64,000 nt of DNA from an uncultured Acidimicrobiales bacterium (GTDB lineage: Bacteria; Actinomycetota; Acidimicrobiia; Acidimicrobiales; SZUA-35): positions 6,528 to 70,527 of the forward strand of contig CALKTH010000080.1 in assembly GCA_937997485.1 (NCBI GenBank), given 5' to 3'. Below the pieces are notes generated by a model that searched no databases, was not told where the DNA came from, and worked only from the letters and a program-made list of their open reading frames with translations. The position numbers and the translations under genes were made by a program. Positions 513 to 62,219 of this stretch are shown here, piece after piece (positions within the stretch are counted from its first letter, which is position 1; every line of letters begins with the position of its first letter).

Positions 513-524
513 GGGCCGGAATGT

Positions 525-538
525 ACCGAACGTTCGTT
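525..538. promoter_or_regulatory. Palindromic candidate TetR operator (core CGAACGTTCG, 527-536)
   Basis: Perfect 10-bp palindrome cgaacgttcg, extended to accgaacgttcgtt with one mismatch. It lies 13 bp from the TetR start, in the 104-bp divergent intergenic region. Confidence 0.45.
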
Positions 539-616
539 TTCGGGCCAACGCAGCGCCACCGGCGCCGGCGCCGATGGGAGTTGGCAACAGGAAGCGAAAA
601 CACCGATCATGTCCGC

Positions 617-1726
617 ATGTTGGACTTTCGCCTAGACGCCGAACTCGAGACCCTTCGCAAGCGGGCTCGCGCCGTTGCCGAGGACGGCGTTGCCCGGTTC
701 GGGCGTCACAACGACAGCTGGATCAATGGCTTCTCCAAGGAGTTTGCCCAGGTCATGGCCGAAGAGGGCTGGATTGGCATGGGCTGGCCCAAGGAGTTCG
801 GCGGGCAGGAGCGCCCGCCGATCGAACGGGTCATCGTCGCCGAAGAGATGATCGGCAAGGGCGCTCCCATCGCCGCAATGTGGTTCGCCGACCGCCAGAT
901 GGGACCAACCATCATCCAGTACGGCACGGCCGACCAGCAGGCCGAATACCTCCCCAAGATGCTCAGCGGTGAGAGCACCTGGTGCATCGGGATGAGTGAA
1001 CCGGATGCCGGTAGCGACCTGGCTTCGCTCAAGACCAGTGCCGTGAGAGACGGCGACACGTTCGTCATCAACGGCCAGAAGATCTGGACGAGCTTCGGCG
1101 CCGTCGCCGACTACTGCTACCTCATTTGTCGAACCGACTCCTCGGGCCCTCCCCATCGCGGCATCTCTGAGGTCGTGGTTCCGATGGACACCCCAGGCAT
1201 CGAAGTCCGACCTATCACCGACATGACCACAAACAAGCACTTCTGCGAGGTCTACTTCACGGATGTGCGGGTGCCGGTCGAGAATCTCGTCGGAGTCGAG
1301 GGTGCGGCGTTCAAACAGACGATGAAGCAGCTCGAACACGGGCGAGGTGGCATCGACCGGCTCGTCTCCAATCGAGCCTTGTACGACCTCGCCGTCGAAC
1401 GAGCAGACACAAGCGACCCGGTTGTTCGTCAAGACATTGCGAGGCTGGAGACGGGCTATCGACTCGGTCGCTTGCTCGTGTATCGCGAGGTGCTCCGCCA
1501 GGCACCGGCCGGATTCTCCGCCGCCACGAAATGCTTCTGCACCGAACACGAGATCGAGGTCGCGAACTTCGTAGCCAAGACGCTGGGGCCAGACGCCATG
1601 CTGTTCGATGAGGTGGGCAAGGGCCTGGCCTACGCCCCCGGCTACACGATCATGGGTGGCACGTCCGACGTGATGCGAAACATCCTCGGTGAGCGAGTCC
1701 TCGGCCTTCCTCGCGAACCACGCTAA
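617..1726 (+). CDS. Acyl-CoA dehydrogenase
   Basis: Part of ORF 521..1726. The ACAD-like sequence begins at MLDFRLDAELETLRKRARAV (ATG 617, GGAAG upstream). Motifs: WCIGMSEPDAGSDLASLKT and GGTSDVMRNILGERVLGLP. Confidence 0.9.
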   Translation: MLDFRLDAELETLRKRARAVAEDGVARFGRHNDSWINGFSKEFAQVMAEEGWIGMGWPKEFGGQERPPIERVIVAEEMIGKGAPIAAMWFADRQMGPTIIQYGTADQQAEYLPKMLSGESTWCIGMSEPDAGSDLASLKTSAVRDGDTFVINGQKIWTSFGAVADYCYLICRTDSSGPPHRGISEVVVPMDTPGIEVRPITDMTTNKHFCEVYFTDVRVPVENLVGVEGAAFKQTMKQLEHGRGGIDRLVSNRALYDLAVERADTSDPVVRQDIARLETGYRLGRLLVYREVLRQAPAGFSAATKCFCTEHEIEVANFVAKTLGPDAMLFDEVGKGLAYAPGYTIMGGTSDVMRNILGERVLGLPREPR

Positions 1727-2654: not shown

Positions 2655-3686
2655 TCACGGGCCGCTTGGGCGCCCGTCGATCATCTGGTCCAGATACTCC
2701 GACATCCCCATGCCCACCTGCGTGCTGCCATCTTCGGCATGGTGCGTGTACTCGGTCATTCCCTCGGCGATGCGGGTGAAGAGCTCCTCACCTTCCGGGG
2801 TTGTCCGTCGATTGCGAAGCGGAATGAGGGAGAGCACGTTGCCGGTGATGGTGTACTCCTTGCCGGTCTCCGACTTCGCCCAACATCGCATACCGGTCTG
2901 GTGAAAACGGTCGTCGATGTCGGACTCGATCCGACAGTCCACGATCTTGTGATACTCGTCGCCCTCCAGCACCATCCCGCCCTTGCGCTCGCCGATGACG
3001 GAGAGCATGAGCGCGAACTGATCGCTGAACACCATGGGCAGCCAGCGGTACCAATTGATCGCTTGCCAGAAGCGCGGACCCCAGGACTTGTCTCGCAGGC
3101 CGAGTCCGTCGATCGCGAACTCTTCGTCGCCGATCCGCATCGAGCCAGCCACGCGCGTGTGCTGTTCGTAGTGGGCCTTGGCGAAGGACTGCTCAGCCTT
3201 CTGTTCGATCTCCGTGCCATCTTCGTACACGGGTCGGCCGCCATACATGGGCGACACCCCATGGAAGTCCAGCTCGACAACACAGGTCTCGTGCGGATTC
3301 TCCTTGAACGCCTTCCGTGGGTTCTCCATCTGTTCCGGCTCCGCGAGGACGACGACGTCACCTTGGTAGGTCACCCGGAGATGCTCGAACGGCTTCACCA
3401 CCTCGATGTGGAGTCCGCCGGCCCGCATCTCAGAATTGTCAGCAATGTGTGGCCGCCCGAACATGAACGCCACGCGTCCGCCCGGTAGATAGAGGCATAC
3501 CGACATTTCGGCGTAACCCTCGTGCACTCGGTTGCCAAGCCGGAACCAGCCACCGATCTGCTGCTCGAGATCGAAGGCATTCAGGTACATGCTCTCGTTG
3601 TAGTTGGAAGCAGCGTCGGGTTCGTGGGTGTACTCGTCCTCCGGCTCGAGGACCGTCACGATCGTGCGGCCCTCCGATGAGCTCAT
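2655..3686 (-). CDS. Conserved hypothetical protein, beta-rich (possibly AttH/CrtC-like fold; tentative)
   Basis: 343-aa ORF with normal composition and GC3 bias. ATGA overlap with the upstream gene at 3683-3686. I recognise no catalytic motif. Confidence 0.75.
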   Translation of the reverse strand: MSSSEGRTIVTVLEPEDEYTHEPDAASNYNESMYLNAFDLEQQIGGWFRLGNRVHEGYAEMSVCLYLPGGRVAFMFGRPHIADNSEMRAGGLHIEVVKPFEHLRVTYQGDVVVLAEPEQMENPRKAFKENPHETCVVELDFHGVSPMYGGRPVYEDGTEIEQKAEQSFAKAHYEQHTRVAGSMRIGDEEFAIDGLGLRDKSWGPRFWQAINWYRWLPMVFSDQFALMLSVIGERKGGMVLEGDEYHKIVDCRIESDIDDRFHQTGMRCWAKSETGKEYTITGNVLSLIPLRNRRTTPEGEELFTRIAEGMTEYTHHAEDGSTQVGMGMSEYLDQMIDGRPSGP

Positions 3687-4201
3687 GCTGCCTTCTTCTG
3701 CTTCGCGCCCTTCTTGCCCGACTTCTGCTTGGCCGCCAACTTCGCCGCCTTCTTGATGCGTCGATGCTGAGCGGCAAGCAGGCGAGTGGAATCACGTTCC
3801 TCTGCGATATAGCGACCCAACAACCCGCCGGTCACCGGGTCAATGGTCTTGTCCTGGAACATTCCGTCGAAGACATCAACCTTCTGTGGGCCCTTGCCGA
3901 AACCGAGTGCGGCGAACTTCTCCAGGTCGCTCAGCTTCTTCGACCCTGCCACCTTGACCGCCGAGGCGTTGCGTTTGGCCGCCATGTCCGCGCCTCGCAC
4001 CTCGTAGCCGAGTTCGAGCATCCGCTTGGCAAACGCCTTGCCGTGCTCGCCCTCTCGCATCCCGACGAAGCGCAGCGCAGCGGCCAACTCAGCATCCTTC
4101 GTTTGATCGGCCCAGGCATCGAAGATGGGTTCCGCTGCGGTTTCAGCAATCGCCAGGGCATTGAGCAGTCCGAGATACGACGGTTTCTGAGTTGCAGCCA
4201 T
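3683..4201 (-). CDS. Hypothetical helical protein with possible ferritin-like ExxH motif and Lys-rich C-terminal tail
   Basis: ORF 3683..4207 starts at TTG; ATG at 4201. Contains MREGEHGKAF (ExxH) and the tail RRIKKAAKLAAKQKSGKKGAKQKKAA. 4-bp overlap with the downstream gene. Confidence 0.7.
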   Translation of the reverse strand: MAATQKPSYLGLLNALAIAETAAEPIFDAWADQTKDAELAAALRFVGMREGEHGKAFAKRMLELGYEVRGADMAAKRNASAVKVAGSKKLSDLEKFAALGFGKGPQKVDVFDGMFQDKTIDPVTGGLLGRYIAEERDSTRLLAAQHRRIKKAAKLAAKQKSGKKGAKQKKAA

Positions 4202-6467: not shown

Positions 6468-7831
6468 TGGCGGATCTCCTCATTCACAACGCTCGGCTGG
6501 TTGCCACCGTCGACGCTGAGCGCCGAGAGCTCGCCGGCGGATGGGTTGCCATCACCGACGGTCTTGTCAGCGGCGTTGGTTCCTCCCTTGACCCGCCACC
6601 AACCGCCGAACGAGTCATTGATGCCACCGATTGCCTGGTCACGCCGGGGCTCGTCAACACGCACCACCACCTCTTCCAGAATCTGACCCGGGCGTACACG
6701 CCGATGACCAGCGCACCGTTGTTCGGTTGGCTGCAGACCCTCTACCCACTCTGGGTGGCGAATATCGACGAGGAGTCGCAGTACCTTGCGGCGTGGATTG
6801 GCCTGGCCGAGCTCGCCCTCTCCGGATGCACCACATCGACTGACCACCACTACCTGCATCCGTTGCGTGCGGGGGATCTCCTAGGAGCGGAGATCCGAGC
6901 TGCTCAGGACCTTGGGATGCGGTTCCATCCAACCTACGGATCCATGTCTCTGTCGGAGAAGGACGGAGGGCTTCCCCCTGACGCTGCCGTGCGGGACGAA
7001 GAAGACATCTTGGCCGAGTCCGAACGGCATGTAGCGCGCTGGCATGATCCGGCCCATGGATCCATGGTGCAGATCGCGCTCGCCCCATGCTCACCCTTCA
7101 CCGTGACACCGGATCTCATGCGCCAGTCAGCGGAGCTCGCTGAGCGGCTGGACGTCCGGCTGCACACTCATCTGGCAGAGAACGCAGAGGACGATGAGTT
7201 CGCCGTTGCCACGTTCGGTATGCGTCCCGTTGATCTCTACGAATCGGTCGGTTGGATGAGCGAACGAACGTGGGGGGCCCACGTTGTCCGGCCCGACCCA
7301 GATGAAGTGGTCCGCCTTGGCGCAGCCGGTGTCGGAATCGCTCATTGCCCGAGTTCGAACATGATCCTCTCGTCCGGCATCGCGCCTGTCGTCGATCTCC
7401 GGGCCGCAGGCTGTCATGTTGGCTTGGGGTGTGATGGTTCCTCATCGGCTGATAGTGCGTCGCTGTGGCAGGAGGCCCGCCTCTCCATGCTCCAGGGCAA
7501 GCTCATCTCCGGAGCGGGGGCGATGACCGCTCGGGACAGCCTGGAGATCGCGACACGAGGTGGTGCCGGCTGCTTGGGCCGGGTCGGTGAACTCGGTGAG
7601 CTCACCGTCGGAGCGGTCGGAGACGTCGCTGTCTGGAAGCTCGATGGTCCCGTCTTCGCCGGTGTCCTTGATGACCCCATCGAGGGATGGCTGCGATGCG
7701 GCCCCACCAGTGCGTGGCACACCATCGTTCGGGGCGAAGCCGTCGTTGCCAATGGAACGCTGCTGCACTCGTCTCTCGAGACCAACCTGCATGCGCATCG
7801 CCAGGCGGCACGCCGCTTTCAGCCGGTGTGA
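6467..7831 (+). CDS. Amidohydrolase, 8-oxoguanine/guanine deaminase-like
   Basis: ORF 6464..7831 starts at TTG; ATG 6467 overlaps the pyrE TGA by 1 nt. Metal motif GLVNTHHHLFQNLTR; also HLAEN and HCPSSN. Confidence 0.85.
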   Translation: MADLLIHNARLVATVDAERRELAGGWVAITDGLVSGVGSSLDPPPTAERVIDATDCLVTPGLVNTHHHLFQNLTRAYTPMTSAPLFGWLQTLYPLWVANIDEESQYLAAWIGLAELALSGCTTSTDHHYLHPLRAGDLLGAEIRAAQDLGMRFHPTYGSMSLSEKDGGLPPDAAVRDEEDILAESERHVARWHDPAHGSMVQIALAPCSPFTVTPDLMRQSAELAERLDVRLHTHLAENAEDDEFAVATFGMRPVDLYESVGWMSERTWGAHVVRPDPDEVVRLGAAGVGIAHCPSSNMILSSGIAPVVDLRAAGCHVGLGCDGSSSADSASLWQEARLSMLQGKLISGAGAMTARDSLEIATRGGAGCLGRVGELGELTVGAVGDVAVWKLDGPVFAGVLDDPIEGWLRCGPTSAWHTIVRGEAVVANGTLLHSSLETNLHAHRQAARRFQPV

Positions 7832-13420: not shown

Positions 13421-14857
13421 TTAGCCCTCGCGGCGGGTATGGGCGTCGAGGACCGACGCCAAGCAGTTGGTCAGGCGTTCGGCATAGTCCAGGTGAAGGA
13501 ACTCATTCGGTCCGTGCGCGTTGGACGCCGGACCGAGCACGCCCGTGATCACGAACTGGGCGGCGGGGAACTTCTCGCCGAGCATGCCCATGAACGGAAT
13601 CGTGCCGCCCTCGCCGTACAACCGCATCGGCTTGTCGAACGCCACCTGACTTGCCGCGTTCAGCGCATCGGAAAGCCACGGCACCAGGGGAGGAGCTTCC
13701 CACCCATCTGCCGAGTCTGCGTGTTCAATGCTGACGCGTGCGCCGTAGGGAACACTGGTCTCCAGTGTGCGCTGCAGTTCCTCCAGCACGACCGCTGCCG
13801 ACGCTGTCGGAGGCACCCGGATCGAAAGCTTGAGACGAGTGAATGGCCGTAGCACGTTGCCAGCCTTGGCGGTGGGTGGCATGCCGTCGGCCCCAACGAC
13901 GGAGAGCGACGGACGCCACGTCTTTGCGATGAGCGCCTCGGTCACATCGTCCTCGGCGAGGCGAGCGCCCTCCACCATGGGCGGATTCTCCAATGCGGCC
14001 CAGCCGAGATCGCCAGCGACCTCGGCTGCCTCTTGTACTCGGCCTTCGGGGATGTCAACGATCGCCGAGTCGAGCAAGAACCGCCCAGTCGAGCTGTCCT
14101 CGATGCGGTCCAGCAGCTGGCGCATGATGCGGAAGCTCGATGGCACGACGCCCCCGACCGCGCCGGAGTGCAAGCCTTCGGTGACGATGTCGACCTGCAC
14201 GTCGGCCATGACCATGCCCCGAAGCGACGTGGTGAGCCAGAGGGTTTCGTAGGTCATGCAGCCCGAGTCGAGACACATCACGAGCTCGACGTCGCCAAGG
14301 CGATCGGCGAGCGCGTCGATGTGGGCAGGCAGGTCGGGAGAACCAGATTCTTCGCTGGCCTCGACGAGCAACACACAGCGAGCGTGCCGGCCGCCATTGC
14401 GCTGCACAGCTTCGATCGCCGTGAGGCTGGCGAACGCTGCATAGCCGTCGTCGGCCCCGCCTCGACCGTAGAGCTTGCCGTCTTCGAGGACCGGCTTCCA
14501 GGGACCGAGATCTTCTCGCCAACCTTCCATCTCGGGTTGCTTGTCGAGATGCCCGTACAGCACGACCGTCTTGTCCGATGCGCCGTCGGGCATGTTGAAC
14601 GCATCAACTTCGACCACGATCAGCGGTGTGAGACCGGGCAGACGTTGTACCTCCACCTGCATGCCGGCGACGTTTCGGCTGGCAATCCAACCTTCGATCT
14701 GCTGTACCGCACGCTCGATCTCGCCGGTGGCCTCCCAGTTCGGATCGAAGGCGGGGGAGAGGGCCGGAATCGCCACGTACTCCACGAGCTGAGGAATCAG
14801 CTCATCCTTCCAGGTCTCGGCGATCTGGGAACGGACAGCATCCAGTTGCAGCGACAT
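13421..14857 (-). CDS. M20-family metallopeptidase/dipeptidase
   Basis: 478 aa. Motifs LYGHLDKQPEM, RGGADDGYA and LVEASEESGS. Confidence 0.85.
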   Translation of the reverse strand: MSLQLDAVRSQIAETWKDELIPQLVEYVAIPALSPAFDPNWEATGEIERAVQQIEGWIASRNVAGMQVEVQRLPGLTPLIVVEVDAFNMPDGASDKTVVLYGHLDKQPEMEGWREDLGPWKPVLEDGKLYGRGGADDGYAAFASLTAIEAVQRNGGRHARCVLLVEASEESGSPDLPAHIDALADRLGDVELVMCLDSGCMTYETLWLTTSLRGMVMADVQVDIVTEGLHSGAVGGVVPSSFRIMRQLLDRIEDSSTGRFLLDSAIVDIPEGRVQEAAEVAGDLGWAALENPPMVEGARLAEDDVTEALIAKTWRPSLSVVGADGMPPTAKAGNVLRPFTRLKLSIRVPPTASAAVVLEELQRTLETSVPYGARVSIEHADSADGWEAPPLVPWLSDALNAASQVAFDKPMRLYGEGGTIPFMGMLGEKFPAAQFVITGVLGPASNAHGPNEFLHLDYAERLTNCLASVLDAHTRREG

Positions 14858-14882
14858 CCCCGGACCTTACCCCTCACCACCG

Positions 14883-14909
14883 CTGTGGGTGCCTGACCCC
14901 CACCATCAC
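14883..14909 (+). repeat. REP-like element copy 1 (CTGTGGGTGCCTGACCCCCACCATCAC)
   Basis: 27/27 identical to the other four copies. Intergenic, 26 bp upstream of the M20 peptidase start codon. Confidence 0.9.
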
Positions 14910-14924
14910 TCCGCTTCCCTCCTG

Positions 14925-14951
14925 CTGTGGGTGCCTGACCCCCACCATCAC
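14925..14951 (+). repeat. REP-like element copy 2
   Basis: 27/27 identical, in direct orientation 42 bp after copy 1. Contains the aminotransferase stop codon (14948-14950). Confidence 0.9.
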
Positions 14952-16129
14952 TCCATTGTGGGCGCCTGAGTCGCACAGAACGAGGCGATGCGTCGACAGC
15001 CCTCGGCGAGGTCCGCATCGCTCAGTGTGAAGGAGATGCGCACCCAACCGTCCGCCGATGGACCGAATGCGGCGGCGTCGAGCACCGAGACCCCGGTGGA
15101 CCGAAACAGGTCCCAGGCGAAGTCGTGGCTCGACGAGTTCACTGCTCGGACGTCGGCCAACACGAACATGCCCGCCTGGGGAGCAAGAACCTCGATGGGG
15201 GTGTCTGCGAGGAGCGACGTGGCCAAGTCCCTCCTTCGGATGTAGTCCTGACGCATTCGTTCCACATCTTCCTGGTGTTCCCGTAGGGCCACGGCCGTGG
15301 CTTGCTGGATGAATCCAGGCAAGCCGTAGGTGGCAGCAAGACTCAGCCGGTCCATGTGCTCGATGAACTCGCGGGGGCCCGCCGCCCATCCGGATCTCCA
15401 CCCGGTCATGGCGTGTGATTTGGACACTGAGCCGAGGGTGACGGTCCGCTCCTTCATGCCCTCGACTGAGGCCATTGGTGTGTGCAATCCGCTGAACACC
15501 AGATCGGCGTACACCTCGTCGGAGAGGACCCAAAGATCGTGCTCAATCGCCACGGCGGCAACGGCTCGCGTTTCTTGCTCGGTGGCGACAACACCGGACG
15601 GATTCGCCGGCGAGTTGAACAGGATCGCCTTGGTCTTTGGAGTGATCGCCGCAGCGAGACCTTCGGTGTTGGCTCGAAAGCCAGCGAGCGGAGGAACAGC
15701 GACCACGACACCACCGGGGGCCTGAATGCTGGCTTCGTAGGTGAGGTAGGCCGGGTCGAAGACGATGACCTCGTCACCCGGATCAAGCAGGCAAAGACAG
15801 GCCGAAAACAGGGCTCCCTGGGTACCCACCGCAGCGATGACCTCGTCGGGGGCATAGTCGACGCCTGCCCTGCGATTCAGATGCTCGACGATCGAGTCTC
15901 GCAGGCCGTACTTGCCAGCAATCGGGGCGTAGTGTGTGTCACCAGCCCGCATGGCAGCGGCCGCCGCATCGATGATGCCTGTGGGTGTGTCATGGTCCGG
16001 ATCACCGACGCTGAGAATGACAACGTCTTCCCCACGAGCCTCTGCTTGGCGAGCGGCAAAATGGACGGCCCATCCGGCCGCGCCTTTGCCGGCGATCCGA
16101 TCGACCAGCGCGGCGTATGGGCGGGTCAC
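14948..16129 (-). CDS. Class I/II pyridoxal-phosphate aminotransferase
   Basis: Part of ORF 14948..16555. GTG 16129 overlaps the upstream TGA (GTGA). PLP-lysine motif SVSKSHAMTGWRSGW; also NSPANPSG. Confidence 0.85.
   Translation of the reverse strand: MTRPYAALVDRIAGKGAAGWAVHFAARQAEARGEDVVILSVGDPDHDTPTGIIDAAAAAMRAGDTHYAPIAGKYGLRDSIVEHLNRRAGVDYAPDEVIAAVGTQGALFSACLCLLDPGDEVIVFDPAYLTYEASIQAPGGVVVAVPPLAGFRANTEGLAAAITPKTKAILFNSPANPSGVVATEQETRAVAAVAIEHDLWVLSDEVYADLVFSGLHTPMASVEGMKERTVTLGSVSKSHAMTGWRSGWAAGPREFIEHMDRLSLAATYGLPGFIQQATAVALREHQEDVERMRQDYIRRRDLATSLLADTPIEVLAPQAGMFVLADVRAVNSSSHDFAWDLFRSTGVSVLDAAAFGPSADGWVRISFTLSDADLAEGCRRIASFCATQAPTME
14956..14970 (+). repeat. Degenerate left-half REP copy (ttgtgggcgcctgag)
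   Basis: 13/15 match to ctgtgggtgcctgac. It lies inside the last codons of the aminotransferase CDS. Confidence 0.5.
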
Positions 16130-16908
16130 TGGAAGTCGGGGGTCCGCTTCTCGGCGAACGCCTTGATGCCCTCTTGACCATCGGCCATGCCCATGGCCGC
16201 GGTGATCATGTGGGACTCGCGCTCGCCCGACTCCTCGAGGCTTGAATCGAATCCTTCGTAGATCATGCGCTTCGCATTCCCGTTGGCGAAGTTTGAACCG
16301 GCAGCGAGCATCTCGGCCAGCTCCGTCGCCGCCGCGTCCGCTTCGCCCTTCGGCACCACGCGGTTGACGAGGCCCCATTGCTCTGCTTCGCCAGCGGTGA
16401 GCAACCGGTTCGTCAGTGTGAGGTCCAGCGCTCGGCGAAGGCCGACGTGGCGGGCCAGGAAGTACGTGGACGTGCCATCGGGGGTCATACCGACTCGCGT
16501 GTACCCCATGGTGAACTTTGCGTTCTCGGCCGCGACGACCATGTCGAACGCGCACATGATGGACATGCCAGCGCCCCCGGCTGCCCCACCGACGGCGGCT
16601 ACGACTGGCTTCGACATGCGGTGCATTTGGTAGATCGCTGCGTGAAAGTCAACGAGCATGTCAGCTGCGAGATGGGGCAGCGTGTCACCTGCCTCAGCGA
16701 AGATCTTGAGATCACCGCCAGCGCAGAACACCTTGCCCTCTGCCGTGATCAGTACGACTCGAACGTCGTCGTCGTAGTGCGCAGCCAGCGTGGCCGCTCG
16801 GAGGTCCTTTGCAAACTGGGGAGAAACAGCGTTGGCCCGATCGGGCTCGCTGAATCGGATGTGGGCGATGCGCCCGCTGACGCTGTAGTCGATGGTCTCA
16901 AGATCCAT
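16126..16908 (-). CDS. Enoyl-CoA hydratase/isomerase (crotonase) family protein
   Basis: ATG 16908 with GGGAAGGA RBS. Motifs FCAGGDLK and AVGGAAGGAGMS. Confidence 0.88.
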   Translation of the reverse strand: MDLETIDYSVSGRIAHIRFSEPDRANAVSPQFAKDLRAATLAAHYDDDVRVVLITAEGKVFCAGGDLKIFAEAGDTLPHLAADMLVDFHAAIYQMHRMSKPVVAAVGGAAGGAGMSIMCAFDMVVAAENAKFTMGYTRVGMTPDGTSTYFLARHVGLRRALDLTLTNRLLTAGEAEQWGLVNRVVPKGEADAAATELAEMLAAGSNFANGNAKRMIYEGFDSSLEESGERESHMITAAMGMADGQEGIKAFAEKRTPDFQ

Positions 16909-16972
16909 CGCCAGATCCTTCCCGCCCCACCCCTTTGTGTCCACTCCGATCCACCTCCGCGCCTTCACCGCC

Positions 16973-16999
16973 CTGTGGGTGCCTGACCCCCACCATCAC
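16973..16999 (+). repeat. REP-like element copy 3
   Basis: 27/27 identical. Intergenic, between the RAYT 3' end and the crotonase start. Confidence 0.9.
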
Positions 17000-17079
17000 T
17001 GCAGTGCGGGTCCGTTCCGGGAGGTGGGAGCGCAGCGAGCAACTCGGTGAGTGACCGAGGCCCCAGCCGAGGACACGGC

Positions 17080-17097
17080 CCTGACCCTCACCATCAC
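17080..17097 (+). repeat. Degenerate right-half REP copy (cctgaccctcaccatcac)
   Basis: 17/18 match to the right half of the REP. Overlaps the RAYT stop codon (17094-17096). Confidence 0.5.
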
Positions 17098-18062
17098 ATC
17101 GCTGGCCGATCAGGTCTGCTCGCGACGATGCCGCGGACCTCGGCCACCGAGGCTGTCAACGAAGCATCGCCTTCCATCCGCTCGGCGGTCCTTCGCACGG
17201 CCATGCTCACTCCAGTCGGCGAGATGCCGAAGACCGAGGCAATCTCCGCCAGTGTGGTTCGACACAACGTCCGGGAGAGGTAGATGGCGACAGCACGGCA
17301 GGGAGCGGTCGCTCCGAACCCTCGTTGCAGAATCTCCTCCCGGCTTCCCGGCATGCATGCCATGGTTCCAGCGACCACATCCTCGATCGATGGCGGATCG
17401 TCGTGGCGTTCGGCAAGGCGACTCGACGTCAACGCCGCGTGCTTGGCTCGCCGGACCACGTCCTCCTGGAACTCCTTCGTGCCGAGGATCTCACCACCTC
17501 GCTCGATGGCAGCAACGATTTTCGGATGCTTCGTGCGCGCTCTGGTGAAGTCTCGAATGGCGTCGAGCGAGTCGAACTGACCGAGGTAGTAGGAGGTGTC
17601 CAGCCACTCTGGCGTCGGCGCGAGACCGAGGTAGGACCGGTACGAGGACAAGAGGTGGTCTTCGGCCCGAACGACCATGCCAGCCTCCACCGGATTGTTG
17701 TGCACATAACGAAAGAGCTCGAGCGAGTAGACGCCGTCCTGAACGACAACGTTGCCGTATCGCCCCTCGAACAGGGAGCCGCGGCGCCCGTGGCGTCGAT
17801 TAAACCTCTTCACGTAGGCATTCGTCAGCCAGTGCATCGCCTGGCTCAACCGCCCCTCAGTCGACACGACGATGAAGTGGAAGTGCGTTCGCATCAAGCA
17901 GAACCCGAGCACGACCACACCGAAGCGTTCCTCGAGTTCGGACGCAAGATCGAGAAGCGTCTGCTCGTCAAAGCGATCCAAGAAGATCGGCTGCTTGTTC
18001 GGCGCACGGTTGTACACGTGATGCTTCGCACCGGGATAGTCGAATCGTAGAGGTCGAGCCAT
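17094..18062 (-). CDS. REP-associated tyrosine transposase (RAYT, IS200-like Y1 HUH transposase) with C-terminal DnaA domain-IV-like HTH
   Basis: 322 aa. HUH motif in LMRTHFHFIVV; catalytic Tyr context LFRYVHNNPVEAG. C-terminus RAVAIYLSRTLCRTTLAEIASVFGISPTGVSMAVRR resembles the DnaA C-terminal DNA-binding domain. Flanked by inverted REP copies. Confidence 0.85.
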   Translation of the reverse strand: MARPLRFDYPGAKHHVYNRAPNKQPIFLDRFDEQTLLDLASELEERFGVVVLGFCLMRTHFHFIVVSTEGRLSQAMHWLTNAYVKRFNRRHGRRGSLFEGRYGNVVVQDGVYSLELFRYVHNNPVEAGMVVRAEDHLLSSYRSYLGLAPTPEWLDTSYYLGQFDSLDAIRDFTRARTKHPKIVAAIERGGEILGTKEFQEDVVRRAKHAALTSSRLAERHDDPPSIEDVVAGTMACMPGSREEILQRGFGATAPCRAVAIYLSRTLCRTTLAEIASVFGISPTGVSMAVRRTAERMEGDASLTASVAEVRGIVASRPDRPAM

Positions 18063-18068
18063 CCTCGC

Positions 18069-18098
18069 ATGATATCAAATGCTGTTATTTACGTCTAA
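18069..18098 (-). promoter_or_regulatory. Putative RAYT promoter in an AT-rich island (-35 TTAGAC, -10 TATCAT, 18-nt spacer; near-leaderless)
   Basis: On the minus strand: ttagac(18098-18093)-N18-tatcat(18074-18069)-gcgagg-ATG. The surrounding 44 bp look much more AT-rich than the window. Hexamer match only. Confidence 0.3.
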
Positions 18099-18109
18099 CT
18101 ACGTTCGTG

Positions 18110-18136
18110 GTGATGGTGGGGGTCAGGCACCCACAG
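18110..18136 (-). repeat. REP-like element copy 4 (inverted orientation)
   Basis: The plus strand reads GTGATGGTGGGGGTCAGGCACCCACAG, the exact reverse complement of copies 1-3. Confidence 0.9.
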
Positions 18137-18143
18137 GGGCACG

Positions 18144-18170
18144 GTGATGGTGGGGGTCAGGCACCCACAG
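18144..18170 (-). repeat. REP-like element copy 5 (inverted orientation)
   Basis: 27/27 identical, 34 bp after copy 4. Contains the glcF stop codon (18157-18159). Confidence 0.9.
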
Positions 18171-19419
18171 GCTGGGGCTGGGGCTGGGAGAGGGCCTGGT
18201 CGATCAATTGCATGGGATGGACCGTGGCCACCCCGGCACCGGCAAGATGCATGGAACAGCCGGGATTCGCACTGGCGACCACATCGGGCTCCACCTGATC
18301 GATGACGCCGACCTTCCGCTCCCGAATCGCCCCGGCAAGCTCCGGTTCGAGCACCGAGTACGCACCACCTGCGCCACAACACAATCCGTCATCATCGAGC
18401 TCGACGATCTCTCGGACGAATGGCCGGAGTACGACTCGGGTCCCGGCATGCGCTCGCTGCACATGCCGAAGGTGGCAAGGATCCTGAATCGCGACCCGGA
18501 GATCCAGCGGAGCAGCAACCGACGGCAACCGATCCACGTGCTCAGCCAGCCACTCCTGGATGTCGAACACCCTCGCTGAGAATGCTGCGGCCCCGGCAGT
18601 CCCGAGAAGATGTCCGTAGTCCTTCATCGCCGCCCCACATCCGGCCGAATCGACCAAAATCGGCCGATCATCGTCGGACAGCGTGCGCATCATCCTCTCC
18701 GCCAACGCCCGCGTTTCGCCCGCCAATCCGGCGTGAGCTTGGAGGGCGCCACAGCACGGCGCCAGCTCGTTCGTTGGCGTCACGCCGAATCCGGCAGCCT
18801 CGATCACTCGTTTTCCGGCGGCATGCACCTCTCGTTGCCAGGCATCCATCACACAGCCGGTGAACAGATACACGTCGTCGCCAGAGGCACGTAGCGGCTC
18901 CTGGCGGACGGGCAGGTCATCGGGGAGTCCGAGGCGCCTTGGCACCAGGCCCGTCTTGTTGGCGAGCGCCAGCGCCGACGAGCCCAGCTGCAGCACCTTG
19001 GGTTGCGAAAGCGGCTTGAACGCCAGGCGCTGCCAACGGGGTGTGATCAGATGCTCCTCGGCCAAGGATTCGCGGGCTTGCTCCATCAGATGCCCATACG
19101 GCACTCCACTGGGGCACGCTGGCTCACATCCTCGACATTGCACGCAGCTCTCGAATGAGCGAAGCACATCCTGCGTGACCGGAGCGCCCTCGTCCTGCAC
19201 CTCACGCATCAACTTGATCCGGCCGCGGGGAGACATGCTCTCGTCGCCTGTTACCCGAAACGTTGGGCAATGCGGGAGGCAGAGACCGCACTGCACGCAC
19301 ATGTTGAGATCGTCCGCGTCCAACTTGAGATCCACGCCGGCAGGTACTCCAGCGCCCGCAACACCCGTCTTCCCAACGGCGTCAGGACCTCGTTGGCGGC
19401 GCAGCCATCCAGGGATCAT
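18157..19419 (-). CDS. glcF: Glycolate oxidase iron-sulfur subunit
   Basis: Two 4Fe-4S motifs, CVQCGLCLPHCP and CVQCRGCEPACP, followed by CCG-type Cys-rich repeats. ATGA overlap with glcE. Confidence 0.88.
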   Translation of the reverse strand: MIPGWLRRQRGPDAVGKTGVAGAGVPAGVDLKLDADDLNMCVQCGLCLPHCPTFRVTGDESMSPRGRIKLMREVQDEGAPVTQDVLRSFESCVQCRGCEPACPSGVPYGHLMEQARESLAEEHLITPRWQRLAFKPLSQPKVLQLGSSALALANKTGLVPRRLGLPDDLPVRQEPLRASGDDVYLFTGCVMDAWQREVHAAGKRVIEAAGFGVTPTNELAPCCGALQAHAGLAGETRALAERMMRTLSDDDRPILVDSAGCGAAMKDYGHLLGTAGAAAFSARVFDIQEWLAEHVDRLPSVAAPLDLRVAIQDPCHLRHVQRAHAGTRVVLRPFVREIVELDDDGLCCGAGGAYSVLEPELAGAIRERKVGVIDQVEPDVVASANPGCSMHLAGAGVATVHPMQLIDQALSQPQPQPVGA

Positions 19420-20336
19420 GGCGTCCTTCCTGGATTCAGACGGGAGGCTGGGTCAAAGAGTTGCTTCGTGCGCTGGCCGATCAGCTCTGCGACGGGATCG
19501 ACCGGGAGCGCAGGTTGTGGCGCCGAGGCCCACACACGGCCAACCCCGATGGAGGCAAGGAAGGGCTCGGAAGCACTGAACGCTGCCGCCTGAGCTGGCG
19601 AGAGTGTCCACCGGTGCGCCGGGATCGGGGGAGGACCGCCGACCTCCTGACAGGAGCCCAACGTCATCAGCTGCTTCTGTTCAGCCCGCACATCCACGGC
19701 GTGTCCTTCGAGATGCACCCACGTCGCGCCGCCATCCCACAACACTGCGCTCGGAGTGAGGACAGCATCTCGGGCCCGTGCGGGGGAGAGGCCCTCGCAG
19801 CGCAGCCAGACCGACGCTGGCGGCATCGGGTTCGTGCGGATGATGATTTCGGCGAGAAGGCCGAGCGTTCCAAGAGAGCCCGTGAGCAGCTTCGGAAGAT
19901 TGAAGCCGCTGACGTTCTTCACCACGGGACCCCCGCCAGTTACCAACTTTCCTTCTGCGGAGACGTAGCGAACCTGGAGCACGGAGTCCCTCACGGCACC
20001 TCGCCCCAGCTGATCGACGCTGCTTTCCCCAACCGCAACAGCGCCGCCGACAGTCCCGCCGCGATCCGCCAACGCAGAGCGCTGGCCCTTTTCGGCCAGT
20101 GCGGCGTCGAGCTCGGCAACGGTGGTGCCGGCCCGAACCTGCATCGTCATCTCTTCTGGCCTGTAGCTCACGATGCCGGTTGGCGCCTCAACCACCTGCG
20201 CTTCGGGAGACAGCGTTCCACCGGCCTCCCACCGAGTTCGGCCTCCCGCCACGGACACGGCCCCCTCGGCACCAACCAGCTCCGCAAACTCATGCAGGAC
20301 CGGGTCGTCGATAGCCAGGACGCTGGCACCCATCAT
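19416..20336 (-). CDS. glcE: Glycolate oxidase FAD-binding subunit
   Basis: In-frame ATG 20336 overlaps the glcD TGA. FAD-binding PCMH-type sequence. Positioned between glcD and glcF. Confidence 0.8.
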   Translation of the reverse strand: MMGASVLAIDDPVLHEFAELVGAEGAVSVAGGRTRWEAGGTLSPEAQVVEAPTGIVSYRPEEMTMQVRAGTTVAELDAALAEKGQRSALADRGGTVGGAVAVGESSVDQLGRGAVRDSVLQVRYVSAEGKLVTGGGPVVKNVSGFNLPKLLTGSLGTLGLLAEIIIRTNPMPPASVWLRCEGLSPARARDAVLTPSAVLWDGGATWVHLEGHAVDVRAEQKQLMTLGSCQEVGGPPPIPAHRWTLSPAQAAAFSASEPFLASIGVGRVWASAPQPALPVDPVAELIGQRTKQLFDPASRLNPGRTP

Positions 20337-61112: not shown

Positions 61113-62219
61113 TCAACTGGGGCGCGGTTCCCGCGGCAACCCGAGCACCCGCTCACCGAGAATGTTGCGCTGGACCTCACTTGATCCACCGGCGATGCGC
61201 ATGCCTGGCGCATACAGCATTCGGTCGGCCAACTCGCCTGCAAGCATCGCCTGGGCCCCCGCTACTCGTCCCTCGAGCGCCAGAGCGTCAGTCTCGAGTT
61301 CGGTCCGGAGCAGCTTCGCAGCCGAGGCCATCTCAACGCGTTGGAGCATTGCCCCCAGAGCGGATCCTCGACCCATGAGGGAGGCGAGGGCGTCTCGAGA
61401 TACCGGCCCGGCGCCTCGCCCAGCTTCGGCCAGTGCATCCATGCGTCGTCGCAGGCTGATCACACCCGCGGTGCCAAACGCACCCCGCTCATCACCCAGC
61501 ACCTCCATGGCCACTCGCCATCCATCGTTCAGGGGCCCGAGCAGGGTGTCGGCAGGCAGGAGGACGTCCGTCATGAACACCTCACAGAACTCTTCGTCTC
61601 CGGTCATCTGTTTGAGCGGGCGAATCTCGATGCCAGGCGAGCGCATGTCGATGCAAAAGAAGGAAATGCCACGGTGCTTCGGTTGGTCCTGGTCGGTCCG
61701 GGCGAGGAGGATGCCGAAGTCAGCGAACTGAGCGTTCGAGGACCAAACTTTTTGCCCGTTCACCACGAAGCCATCGCCGTCGGCCACCGCACTCGTCGAG
61801 AGACCAGCCAGGTCGCTTCCGGCGTTCGGTTCGCTGAACAGCTGACACCAAAGCGCAGATCCGTCGAGGATCGAGGGCAAGATTCGGCGCTTCTGCTCAT
61901 CCGTGCCGGATCGCAGCACCGCTTCGCCGGTCAGGATGTTGCCCTGCAAGTTGAGGTAGGGGGCAACACCTGCTCGAGCGCACTCCTCGAACCACACTGC
62001 GCTGTGGGCATGGCTCAAACCCTGGCCTCCGTACTCCACGGGCCAATGGAGTCCGGCCAACCCAAGTTCAAAGATGGTGGCCTGCCAGGCCCTGGCCTGG
62101 TCGTGAAGAGCAGGAATCAAGATGGCGCCAAAGTCCGGGCACGCCTTCGGATGCTGCATTGCCCCGCGCACTCGGGCCCGAAAGGCGGAGAGATCGGACT
62201 CGGAATCCAAGCTGGTCAC
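61113..62219 (-). CDS. Acyl-CoA dehydrogenase
   Basis: GTG start 62219. Motifs WCQLFSEPNAGSDLAGLST and GGSSEVQRNILGERVLGLPREP. Confidence 0.88.
   Translation of the reverse strand: MTSLDSESDLSAFRARVRGAMQHPKACPDFGAILIPALHDQARAWQATIFELGLAGLHWPVEYGGQGLSHAHSAVWFEECARAGVAPYLNLQGNILTGEAVLRSGTDEQKRRILPSILDGSALWCQLFSEPNAGSDLAGLSTSAVADGDGFVVNGQKVWSSNAQFADFGILLARTDQDQPKHRGISFFCIDMRSPGIEIRPLKQMTGDEEFCEVFMTDVLLPADTLLGPLNDGWRVAMEVLGDERGAFGTAGVISLRRRMDALAEAGRGAGPVSRDALASLMGRGSALGAMLQRVEMASAAKLLRTELETDALALEGRVAGAQAMLAGELADRMLYAPGMRIAGGSSEVQRNILGERVLGLPREPRPS

Follow-up and report, generated by a model that had tools for sequence, protein, structure and literature searches.

A probable TIRtron in an Acidimicrobiia-like actinobacterium: a TIRYT gene among copies of a 27-bp repeat

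The 64,000-nt stretch of contig CALKTH010000080.1 analyzed here (the window) carries, on its minus strand, a gene for a 322-aa Y1 HuH protein that lies between inverted copies of a 27-bp repeat. An earlier note on this DNA took the locus for a candidate REPtron, that is, a RAYT-type transposase gene flanked by REP-like (repetitive extragenic palindromic) elements. Here, we compare the protein with profiles, structures and published relatives, the repeat with those that flank homologous genes, and the locus with its counterparts in closely related strains. The locus is probably a TIRtron, composed of a resident, apparently single-copy TIRYT gene of TnpA_Y1 subclass 2.1.2 and its cognate 27-bp repeat; TIRtrons are RAYT-like genes flanked by terminal inverted repeats (TIRs) rather than by GTAG REPs (Di Nocera, De Gregorio & Rocco 2013, PMC3733652). 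The features of the locus are as follows.

18144-18170, minus strand: distal upstream unit, 27 bp, in a direct dimer with the proximal unit (7-nt spacer)
18110-18136, minus strand: proximal upstream unit, 27 bp, 47 nt ahead of the ATG; sequence on the sense strand of the gene, CTGTGGGTG-CCTGACCCC-CACCATCAC
18069-18097, minus strand: promoter-like site, TAGACG-17-TATCAT, in which TG precedes the second hexamer (consensus match only)
17094-18062, minus strand: putative TIRYT gene, 322 aa, with an N-terminal Y1 HuH nuclease domain (H60/H62, Y119) and a C-terminal helix-turn-helix (HTH) domain at ~225-315 that resembles DnaA domain IV
17259-17262: site of codon 268 of this gene (6880-6883, 1047-1050 and 860-863 in the sister-strain contigs L004, L005 and L006)
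17074-17097, plus strand: degenerate unit that retains GTGATGGTGaGGGTCAGG, overlaps the last TIRYT codon and provides the gene's stop
16973-16999, plus strand: downstream unit, 27 bp, 94 nt past the Y1 stop and inverted relative to the upstream units
14954-14978, plus strand: degenerate unit that keeps ~16/23 positions in an alignment by eye
14925-14951, plus strand: third-cluster unit, 27 bp, in a direct dimer (15-nt spacer); its GTGATG tail gives the aminotransferase TGA
14883-14909, plus strand: third-cluster unit, 27 bp, 25 nt upstream of the M20 peptidase start

The repeat unit, CTGTGGGTGCCTGACCCCCACCATCAC, occurs in five exact copies (27/27 identical) that start at 14883, 14925 and 16973 on the plus strand and at 18110 and 18144 on the minus strand; all lie inside 3.3 kb, and none is expected by chance (100 dinucleotide shuffles). 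It can be written as GTGATGGT-GGGGTCAGG-CACCCACAG or, alternatively, as GTGATGGT-GGGGTCAG-GCACCCACAG. A fuzzy search of the 64 kb with up to 7 errors added only the degenerate copy at 17074-17097, and reading of the sequence added a second one at 14954-14978, so that the five identical and two degenerate copies described in the earlier note hold up. Around the Y1 gene the perfect inverted arms extend to 29 nt (16971-16999 and 18110-18138).

The units occupy three consecutive intergenic spacers in a stretch where all genes run on the minus strand: two direct units between a GlcF-like gene and the Y1 gene, one exact and one degenerate unit between the Y1 gene and an enoyl-CoA hydratase gene (whose start lies 28 nt downstream of the unit at 16973-16999), and two direct exact units plus one degenerate unit between an aminotransferase and an M20 peptidase gene. 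In each spacer, the preceding gene runs at its 3' end into the first unit and takes its TGA from it. The unit at 18144-18170, for example, covers the final 14 nt of the GlcF-like open reading frame (18157-19419), with the TGA falling within CCTGACCCC, and the degenerate unit at 14954-14978 encodes the C-terminal end of the aminotransferase (…CATQAPTME*), roughly its last 9 codons. The earlier observation that the units are intergenic or sit on gene 3' ends is therefore borne out, with several of them providing stop codons. The stops of three consecutive genes lie inside units or degenerate copies (GlcF-like, 18157-18159; Y1, 17094-17096; aminotransferase, 14948-14950), which indicates that units landed in, or replaced, gene 3' ends.

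The protein belongs to the broad Y1 class, scoring 35.7 bits against Pfam Y1_Tnp (cut-off 23), and to the curated RAYT model NF047646 of NCBIfam, an equivalog, it scores 48.7 bits, under the cut-off of 80. When a family profile built from 40 homologues was searched against the PDB, its C-terminal third (profile positions 218-316) matched DnaA domain IV with an E-value of 3e-11, and E. coli TnpA_REP (4ER8) was matched at 4e-5. With a profile of the N-terminal region, nHyH of the family lines up with EHMH in 4ER8 and rYv with the DYI that holds the catalytic tyrosine, ISDra2 TnpA aligns likewise at the HuH motif and catalytic tyrosine, the match to IS200-type TnpA is weak (E ~0.03), and H60, H62 and Y119 are invariant across the family. 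The profile alignment that the earlier note had proposed as a check of its HUH motif and catalytic tyrosine thus places H60-F-H62 and Y119 where it expected them, in a protein that passes the Y1_Tnp cut-off and falls short of the RAYT one.

An AlphaFold (AF2) model calculated from the family alignment has a mean pLDDT of 90, and its best PDB match by Foldseek is again 4ER8 (TM-score 0.74, target-normalized), with the IS608, ISDra2 and IS200 transposases ranking next. When the C-terminal domain is superposed on the DNA-binding domain of M. tuberculosis DnaA (3PVP), the TM-score is 0.89, the root-mean-square deviation 1.8 Å and the identity 27%; unlike DnaA, the protein has no AAA+ module. Taken together, the profile and structure matches identify it as a fusion of a TnpA_REP-like HuH/Tyr nuclease with an HTH that resembles DnaA domain IV.

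To place the protein among its published relatives, we compared it by BLASTP with TIRYT and RAYT reference sequences taken from the supplementary alignment of PMC3733652. Against 11 published TIRYTs, E-values range from 1e-18 to 2e-31, and identity over the full Y1 domain is 28-39%; with RAYTs, the E-values are 5e-10 (pfs3939), 0.003 (sml2816) and 0.09 (E. coli). The protein is thus unlikely to be the RAYT for which it had been taken: it is far closer to TIRYTs, and it carries the DnaA-domain-IV-like HTH of subclass 2.1.2. The gene matches its neighbors in GC content overall and at third codon positions and is present in one copy in the window, as would fit a long-resident gene and not a recently arrived insertion sequence. 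Its neighbors are metabolic genes, with no tnpB among them.

The repeat points in the same direction as the protein. Every unit contains GGGGTCAG, an exact match to the published TIR motif GGGGWSAS; this motif would be found in a random 27-mer of the same composition with P ~0.009 and the 9-mer GGGGTCARG with P ~4e-4, and the window's occurrences of the 9-mer are confined to the five units. We fetched the genomic contexts of eight homologues, five of which (P0002, P0006, P0016, P0029 and P0047) are flanked by perfect TIRs of 18-28 bp that begin GGGGTCA(G/A)GTC and share the core GGGGTCAGG with the 27-mer.

P0002 TIR: ATAGGGGTCAAGTCTTGACTTAATA
P0016 TIR: AAGGGGTCAAGTCTCCACTTTACACCAG
P0006 TIR: GGGGTCAGGTCCCAGGAACCAGGAAG
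P0029 TIR: TCCGGGGTCAGGTCCCCCCAAGCACA
P0047 TIR: GGGGTCAGGTCTTGAATT

At a sixth homologue, P0008, CTGACCCC lies on the stop codon, and only this downstream side is seen, the contigs (L012/L013) beginning ~150 nt upstream of the gene. The fetched contexts of P0005 and of the HTH_23-type P0012 contain no TIR. By sequence comparison, then, the core of the 27-mer corresponds to the conserved end of the inverted repeats found on either side of related genes, and the repeat that the earlier note had presented as an unrecognized REP carries a published motif. Additional local copies are found in the homologue contigs L010 and L014 as well: P0006 has two repeat copies upstream and two downstream, and P0016 (L014, TIRs at 1402-1428, 2176-2203 and 3221-3248) has one more perfect copy, its third, which is directly oriented and lies 800 bp upstream, past a DUF2203 gene. 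This third copy resembles the window's third cluster, showing that extra local copies are not peculiar to the window.

These properties agree with what has been reported for TIRtrons. The TnpA_Y1 superfamily comprises 12 subclasses, of which 2.1 is the second largest and is equated with the TIRYTs of Di Nocera et al., and members of subgroup 2.1.2 carry C-terminal Bac_DnaA_C, HTH_23 or HTH_28 domains (Quentin et al. 2018, PMC6006769). Many TIRs share GGGGWSAS, some families are moderately abundant, and many TIRs occur in dimers or clusters (PMC3733652). Like these systems, the window has a long RAYT-like Y1 protein with a Bac_DnaA_C-type HTH, encoded by a gene that is resident in the chromosome and flanked by inverted repeats with GGGGWSAS, and its repeats form dimers and clusters at low copy number. 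The locus is thus a new example of the kind described in 2013, with its label corrected from REPtron to TIRtron. The TIR consensus has been described as unlike DnaA boxes (Quentin et al., PMC6006769). We considered the 27-mer itself as a DnaA box and rejected the idea: the two have only CCACA in common, which is about chance level and not significant, and the homologues' TIRs contain no conserved box.

Closely related strains add information on how the gene and its repeats change. Three contigs from other samples (L004, L005 and L006) are 98.7-99.6% identical to the window, and the Y1 gene occupies the same locus in all four strain-level contigs. An exact 27-bp indel separates the window, with one unit at 16973-16999, from the sister strains, in which two units abut (L004 7143-7196, L005 1310-1363). 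The spacer of the upstream dimer is 7 nt in the window (18137-18143) and 9 nt in the sister strains (L004 5997-6005), and one sister-strain unit carries a single substitution. Within the Y1 gene, the sister strains differ from the window at 8 synonymous sites and no missense site, with 6 of the 8 crowded into codons 215-283, besides a nonsense codon: R268* (CGA to TGA) is found in three of the four strain-level contigs, and the window carries the intact allele. That all other differences are synonymous means that the gene has been under purifying selection and that the truncation is recent. The window and L004 differ by 42 mismatches, 30 of which fall in ~4 kb (16400-20100) around the element, at ~8 times the density of the flanks; this suggests a recombination tract or locally raised divergence. 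L025, a relative whose isocitrate dehydrogenase is 80% identical, was considered for an empty-site comparison and is not syntenic. At family near-invariant residues the protein deviates at 9 of 47 positions, not clearly more than other DnaA_C-type members, and we did not use these deviations as evidence of decay.

Several observations weigh against the TIRtron assignment or complicate it. The single sequence scores 19.1 against Pfam Bac_DnaA_C, under the cut-off of 31.5. The R268* allele encodes a 267-aa product that lacks the HTH, and its presence in most of the strain-level contigs means that the function may be dispensable; the unit indel, lying within a tandem array, could be explained by enzyme-free slippage or recombination. 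We know of no TIRYT or other subclass 2.1 protein that has been studied biochemically, and it is therefore by analogy that binding and cleavage of the repeat are inferred.

The geometry of the units also departs from that of homologous loci. At the five homologous TIRtrons the GGGG end points outward: on the sense strand the upstream copy reads GGGGTCA…, and the stop codon is covered by the downstream copy, with the TGA within CTGACCCC. In the window, by contrast, every unit is reversed relative to the gene, giving '< < gene > >' in place of the homologues' '> gene <', so that the upstream units read …CCTGACCCC… and the downstream units …GGGGTCAGG… on the sense strand. The homologue arrangement is a generalization from five loci and not a published criterion. 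Inverting the gene segment cannot yield the window arrangement, and each unit must therefore have been placed in that orientation. Moreover, the window unit differs from the homologues' TIRs in running on for 8 nt past the GGGG end, and it has a shorter inner part than its relatives; it is thus a short (27-bp) unit with an internal rather than terminal core, and it is spread over three adjacent spacers. A short string at 17106-17117 (plus strand), 10-21 nt upstream of the Y1 stop, reads AGACCTGATCGG on the sense strand and is like the AGACCTGACCCC / GGGACCTGACCCC found on the stops of four homologues. It may be a degenerate TIR in the canonical orientation, a suggestion that is post hoc and to be set beside similar GCCGATCAG strings in other coding regions.

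Four other explanations must be weighed against a TIRtron. A canonical REPtron would pair a RAYT with a REP present in tens to hundreds of genome copies and recognized as a single-stranded hairpin with a 5' tag, and the reading of the earlier note is partly supported: the protein is a Y1 HuH enzyme of a RAYT-related class whose HuH and tyrosine residues align with those of TnpA_REP and whose closest structure is that of the E. coli RAYT (YafM; 4ER8), with which it shares core and fold; as in the E. coli REPtron, an apparently single-copy gene lies between inverted copies of a short repeat; the inverted flanking copies, dimers and spacers downstream of genes recall REPs and bacterial interspersed mosaic elements (BIMEs); and a short imperfect palindrome in the repeat has GTGG at its base. 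RAYTs, however, have no HTH domain, and REPs are stable hairpins with a 5' GT[AG]G tag, dispersed in hundreds of copies. The window protein has the HTH of subclass 2.1.2, is only ~17% identical to E. coli TnpA_REP, lies under the curated RAYT cut-off and is much nearer to TIRYTs. The palindrome proposed for the repeat (GTGGG/CCCAC) does form a 5-bp stem in a single-stranded fold of the unit, but at -5.3 kcal/mol this hairpin is no better than chance (z = -1.1; 31 of 200 shuffles fold equally well), and its GTGG lies within the stem, not 5' of it. The opposite strand, the dimer and four of the five homologue TIRs likewise fold no better than shuffles, the exception being a short palindrome in L008 (z -2.4). 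All unit copies being identical, no covariation test is possible; in Rfam we found no family matching the repeats.

The spread of the repeat tells against a REPtron as well. The earlier note had named confinement of the 27-mer to this 3.3-kb stretch as a finding that would refute its own reading, and in the ~68 kb that could be reached this is the case: units are confined to 14883-18170, with none in the other ~61 kb of the window or in ~4 kb beyond its right end, though the rest of the genome may hold a low-copy dispersed family. A scan with the 19-nt core of collections that exclude the source genome gave one match in GTDB representative genomes, two in JGI metagenomes and none in IMG/VR, the three matches being single copies on unrelated contigs without a Y1 gene or synteny. 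Finally, automatic and manual searches around subclass 2.1 genes found no adjacent REPs (PMC6006769). A canonical REPtron is possible only if many copies lie in the unseen genome, and we regard it as quite unlikely.

The locus might instead be a decaying relic, a former TIRtron with an inactive enzyme and passive units that change only by slippage or homologous recombination. The prevalence of R268*, the restriction of units to 3.3 kb, the two degenerate units, what may be a degenerate canonical TIR at the 3' end of the gene, the position of the indel inside a tandem array and the locally raised strain divergence would all be in keeping with such decay. The intact catalytic residues and the 8 synonymous against 0 missense differences speak for a gene that has been maintained, and the complete identity of the five units argues for recent copying or homogenization; on balance, a relic seems unlikely. 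An autonomous IS200/IS605-type insertion sequence with the 27-mers as its ends fits the Y1_Tnp match and the structural likeness to IS608 and ISDra2 TnpA, with which the protein presumably shares a single-strand cleavage and ligation chemistry. Elements of that type, however, encode a transposase of ~130-155 aa that moves its own gene, are present in multiple copies, and end in subterminal hairpins with no inverted repeats. Here, the ends are inverted repeats, the protein has 322 aa with an extra HTH, its match to IS200-type TnpA is weak, and there is no tnpB; the gene has host-like composition and one copy in the window, and it stands at the same locus in all strains. We therefore reject this explanation as extremely improbable.

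As a fourth alternative, the 27-mer could be REP-like and derived from a TIR, with an actinobacterial TIRYT still copying it and inserting it on its own. In this case, the reversed orientation, the identical copies in three spacers and the unit indels would be traces of recent enzyme-driven insertion rather than inherited termini. We consider such active copying doubtful. Were it true, the full-length and R268* alleles would form a ready-made test of what the HTH contributes, and the locus would offer the first functional handle on subclass 2.1.

For the TIRtron that we favor, we propose a mechanism by analogy with better-known Y1 enzymes. Anchored to duplex repeat units through the HTH, the enzyme would use its HuH/Tyr domain to cut and rejoin one strand at the borders of units while that DNA is in single-stranded form, such as at a replication fork; this step is modeled on IS608 and E. 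coli TnpA_REP. The gene would stay in place, and units would now and then be added, lost or re-inserted nearby, which would account for the local dimers, the clusters and the strain-to-strain variation in copy number. Autoregulation may also be possible through the units beside the promoter: the promoter-like site, the only one of its kind in 14700-18400, lies between the proximal unit and the ATG. More generally, TIRYTs may serve to move repeats, in regulation, or at the replication fork through the DnaA-like domain. The locus is compact and combines an enzyme that is intact and seems to be under purifying selection, a perfectly conserved 27-bp sequence as candidate substrate, a natural allele without the HTH, and unit copy-number variation from strain to strain. 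The general picture of REP/RAYT biology is unchanged by these findings.

The host, judged from its proteins, is an Acidimicrobiia-like actinobacterium. The window's monomeric isocitrate dehydrogenase is 76-81% identical to proteins from metagenome-assembled genomes, the named ones being Acidimicrobiales or Actinomycetota, plus Aquihabitans; the aminotransferase points less clearly to the same lineage, and the contig of a relative carries typical actinobacterial genes for mycothiol-dependent (MDMPI_N) and F420-dependent (F420H2_quin_red) enzymes. In the sample of Quentin et al. 2018, Actinobacteridae carry subclass 1.1 only (PMC6006769). The window thus differs from described TIRtrons in its host, and a subclass 2.1 member in this lineage extends the known taxonomic range into a phylum from which earlier surveys had recorded IS200-type members alone. 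Similar genes, apparently in actinobacterial contexts, are already present in metagenome databases (L010, L016).

Other relatives of the protein occur in different settings. The HTH_23-type homologue P0012 (280 aa; L019-L022) is indexed in 269 blocks of the assembly collection, and in all four places shown it adjoins rsmG(gidB)-parA-parB and the atp operon, an origin-proximal position, with no flanking TIR or GGGGWSAS found. Relatives in IMG/VR are distant (26-34% identity) and mostly without the motif. L030, an IMG/VR contig labeled viral, encodes a 257-aa relative (32% identity) with a 28-bp inverted repeat, CATGACACGGGGACGTTTCGTTTGTCAT, at 2926-2953 and 3759-3786, the downstream copy of which overlaps the stop codon. 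Elsewhere in the window, the longest inverted repeat pairs 995-1087 with 61743-61835 (93 nt, 72% complementary); it lies in two opposed acyl-CoA dehydrogenase genes (521-1726, plus strand; 61113-62219, minus strand) and represents paralogous coding sequence rather than a mobile element.

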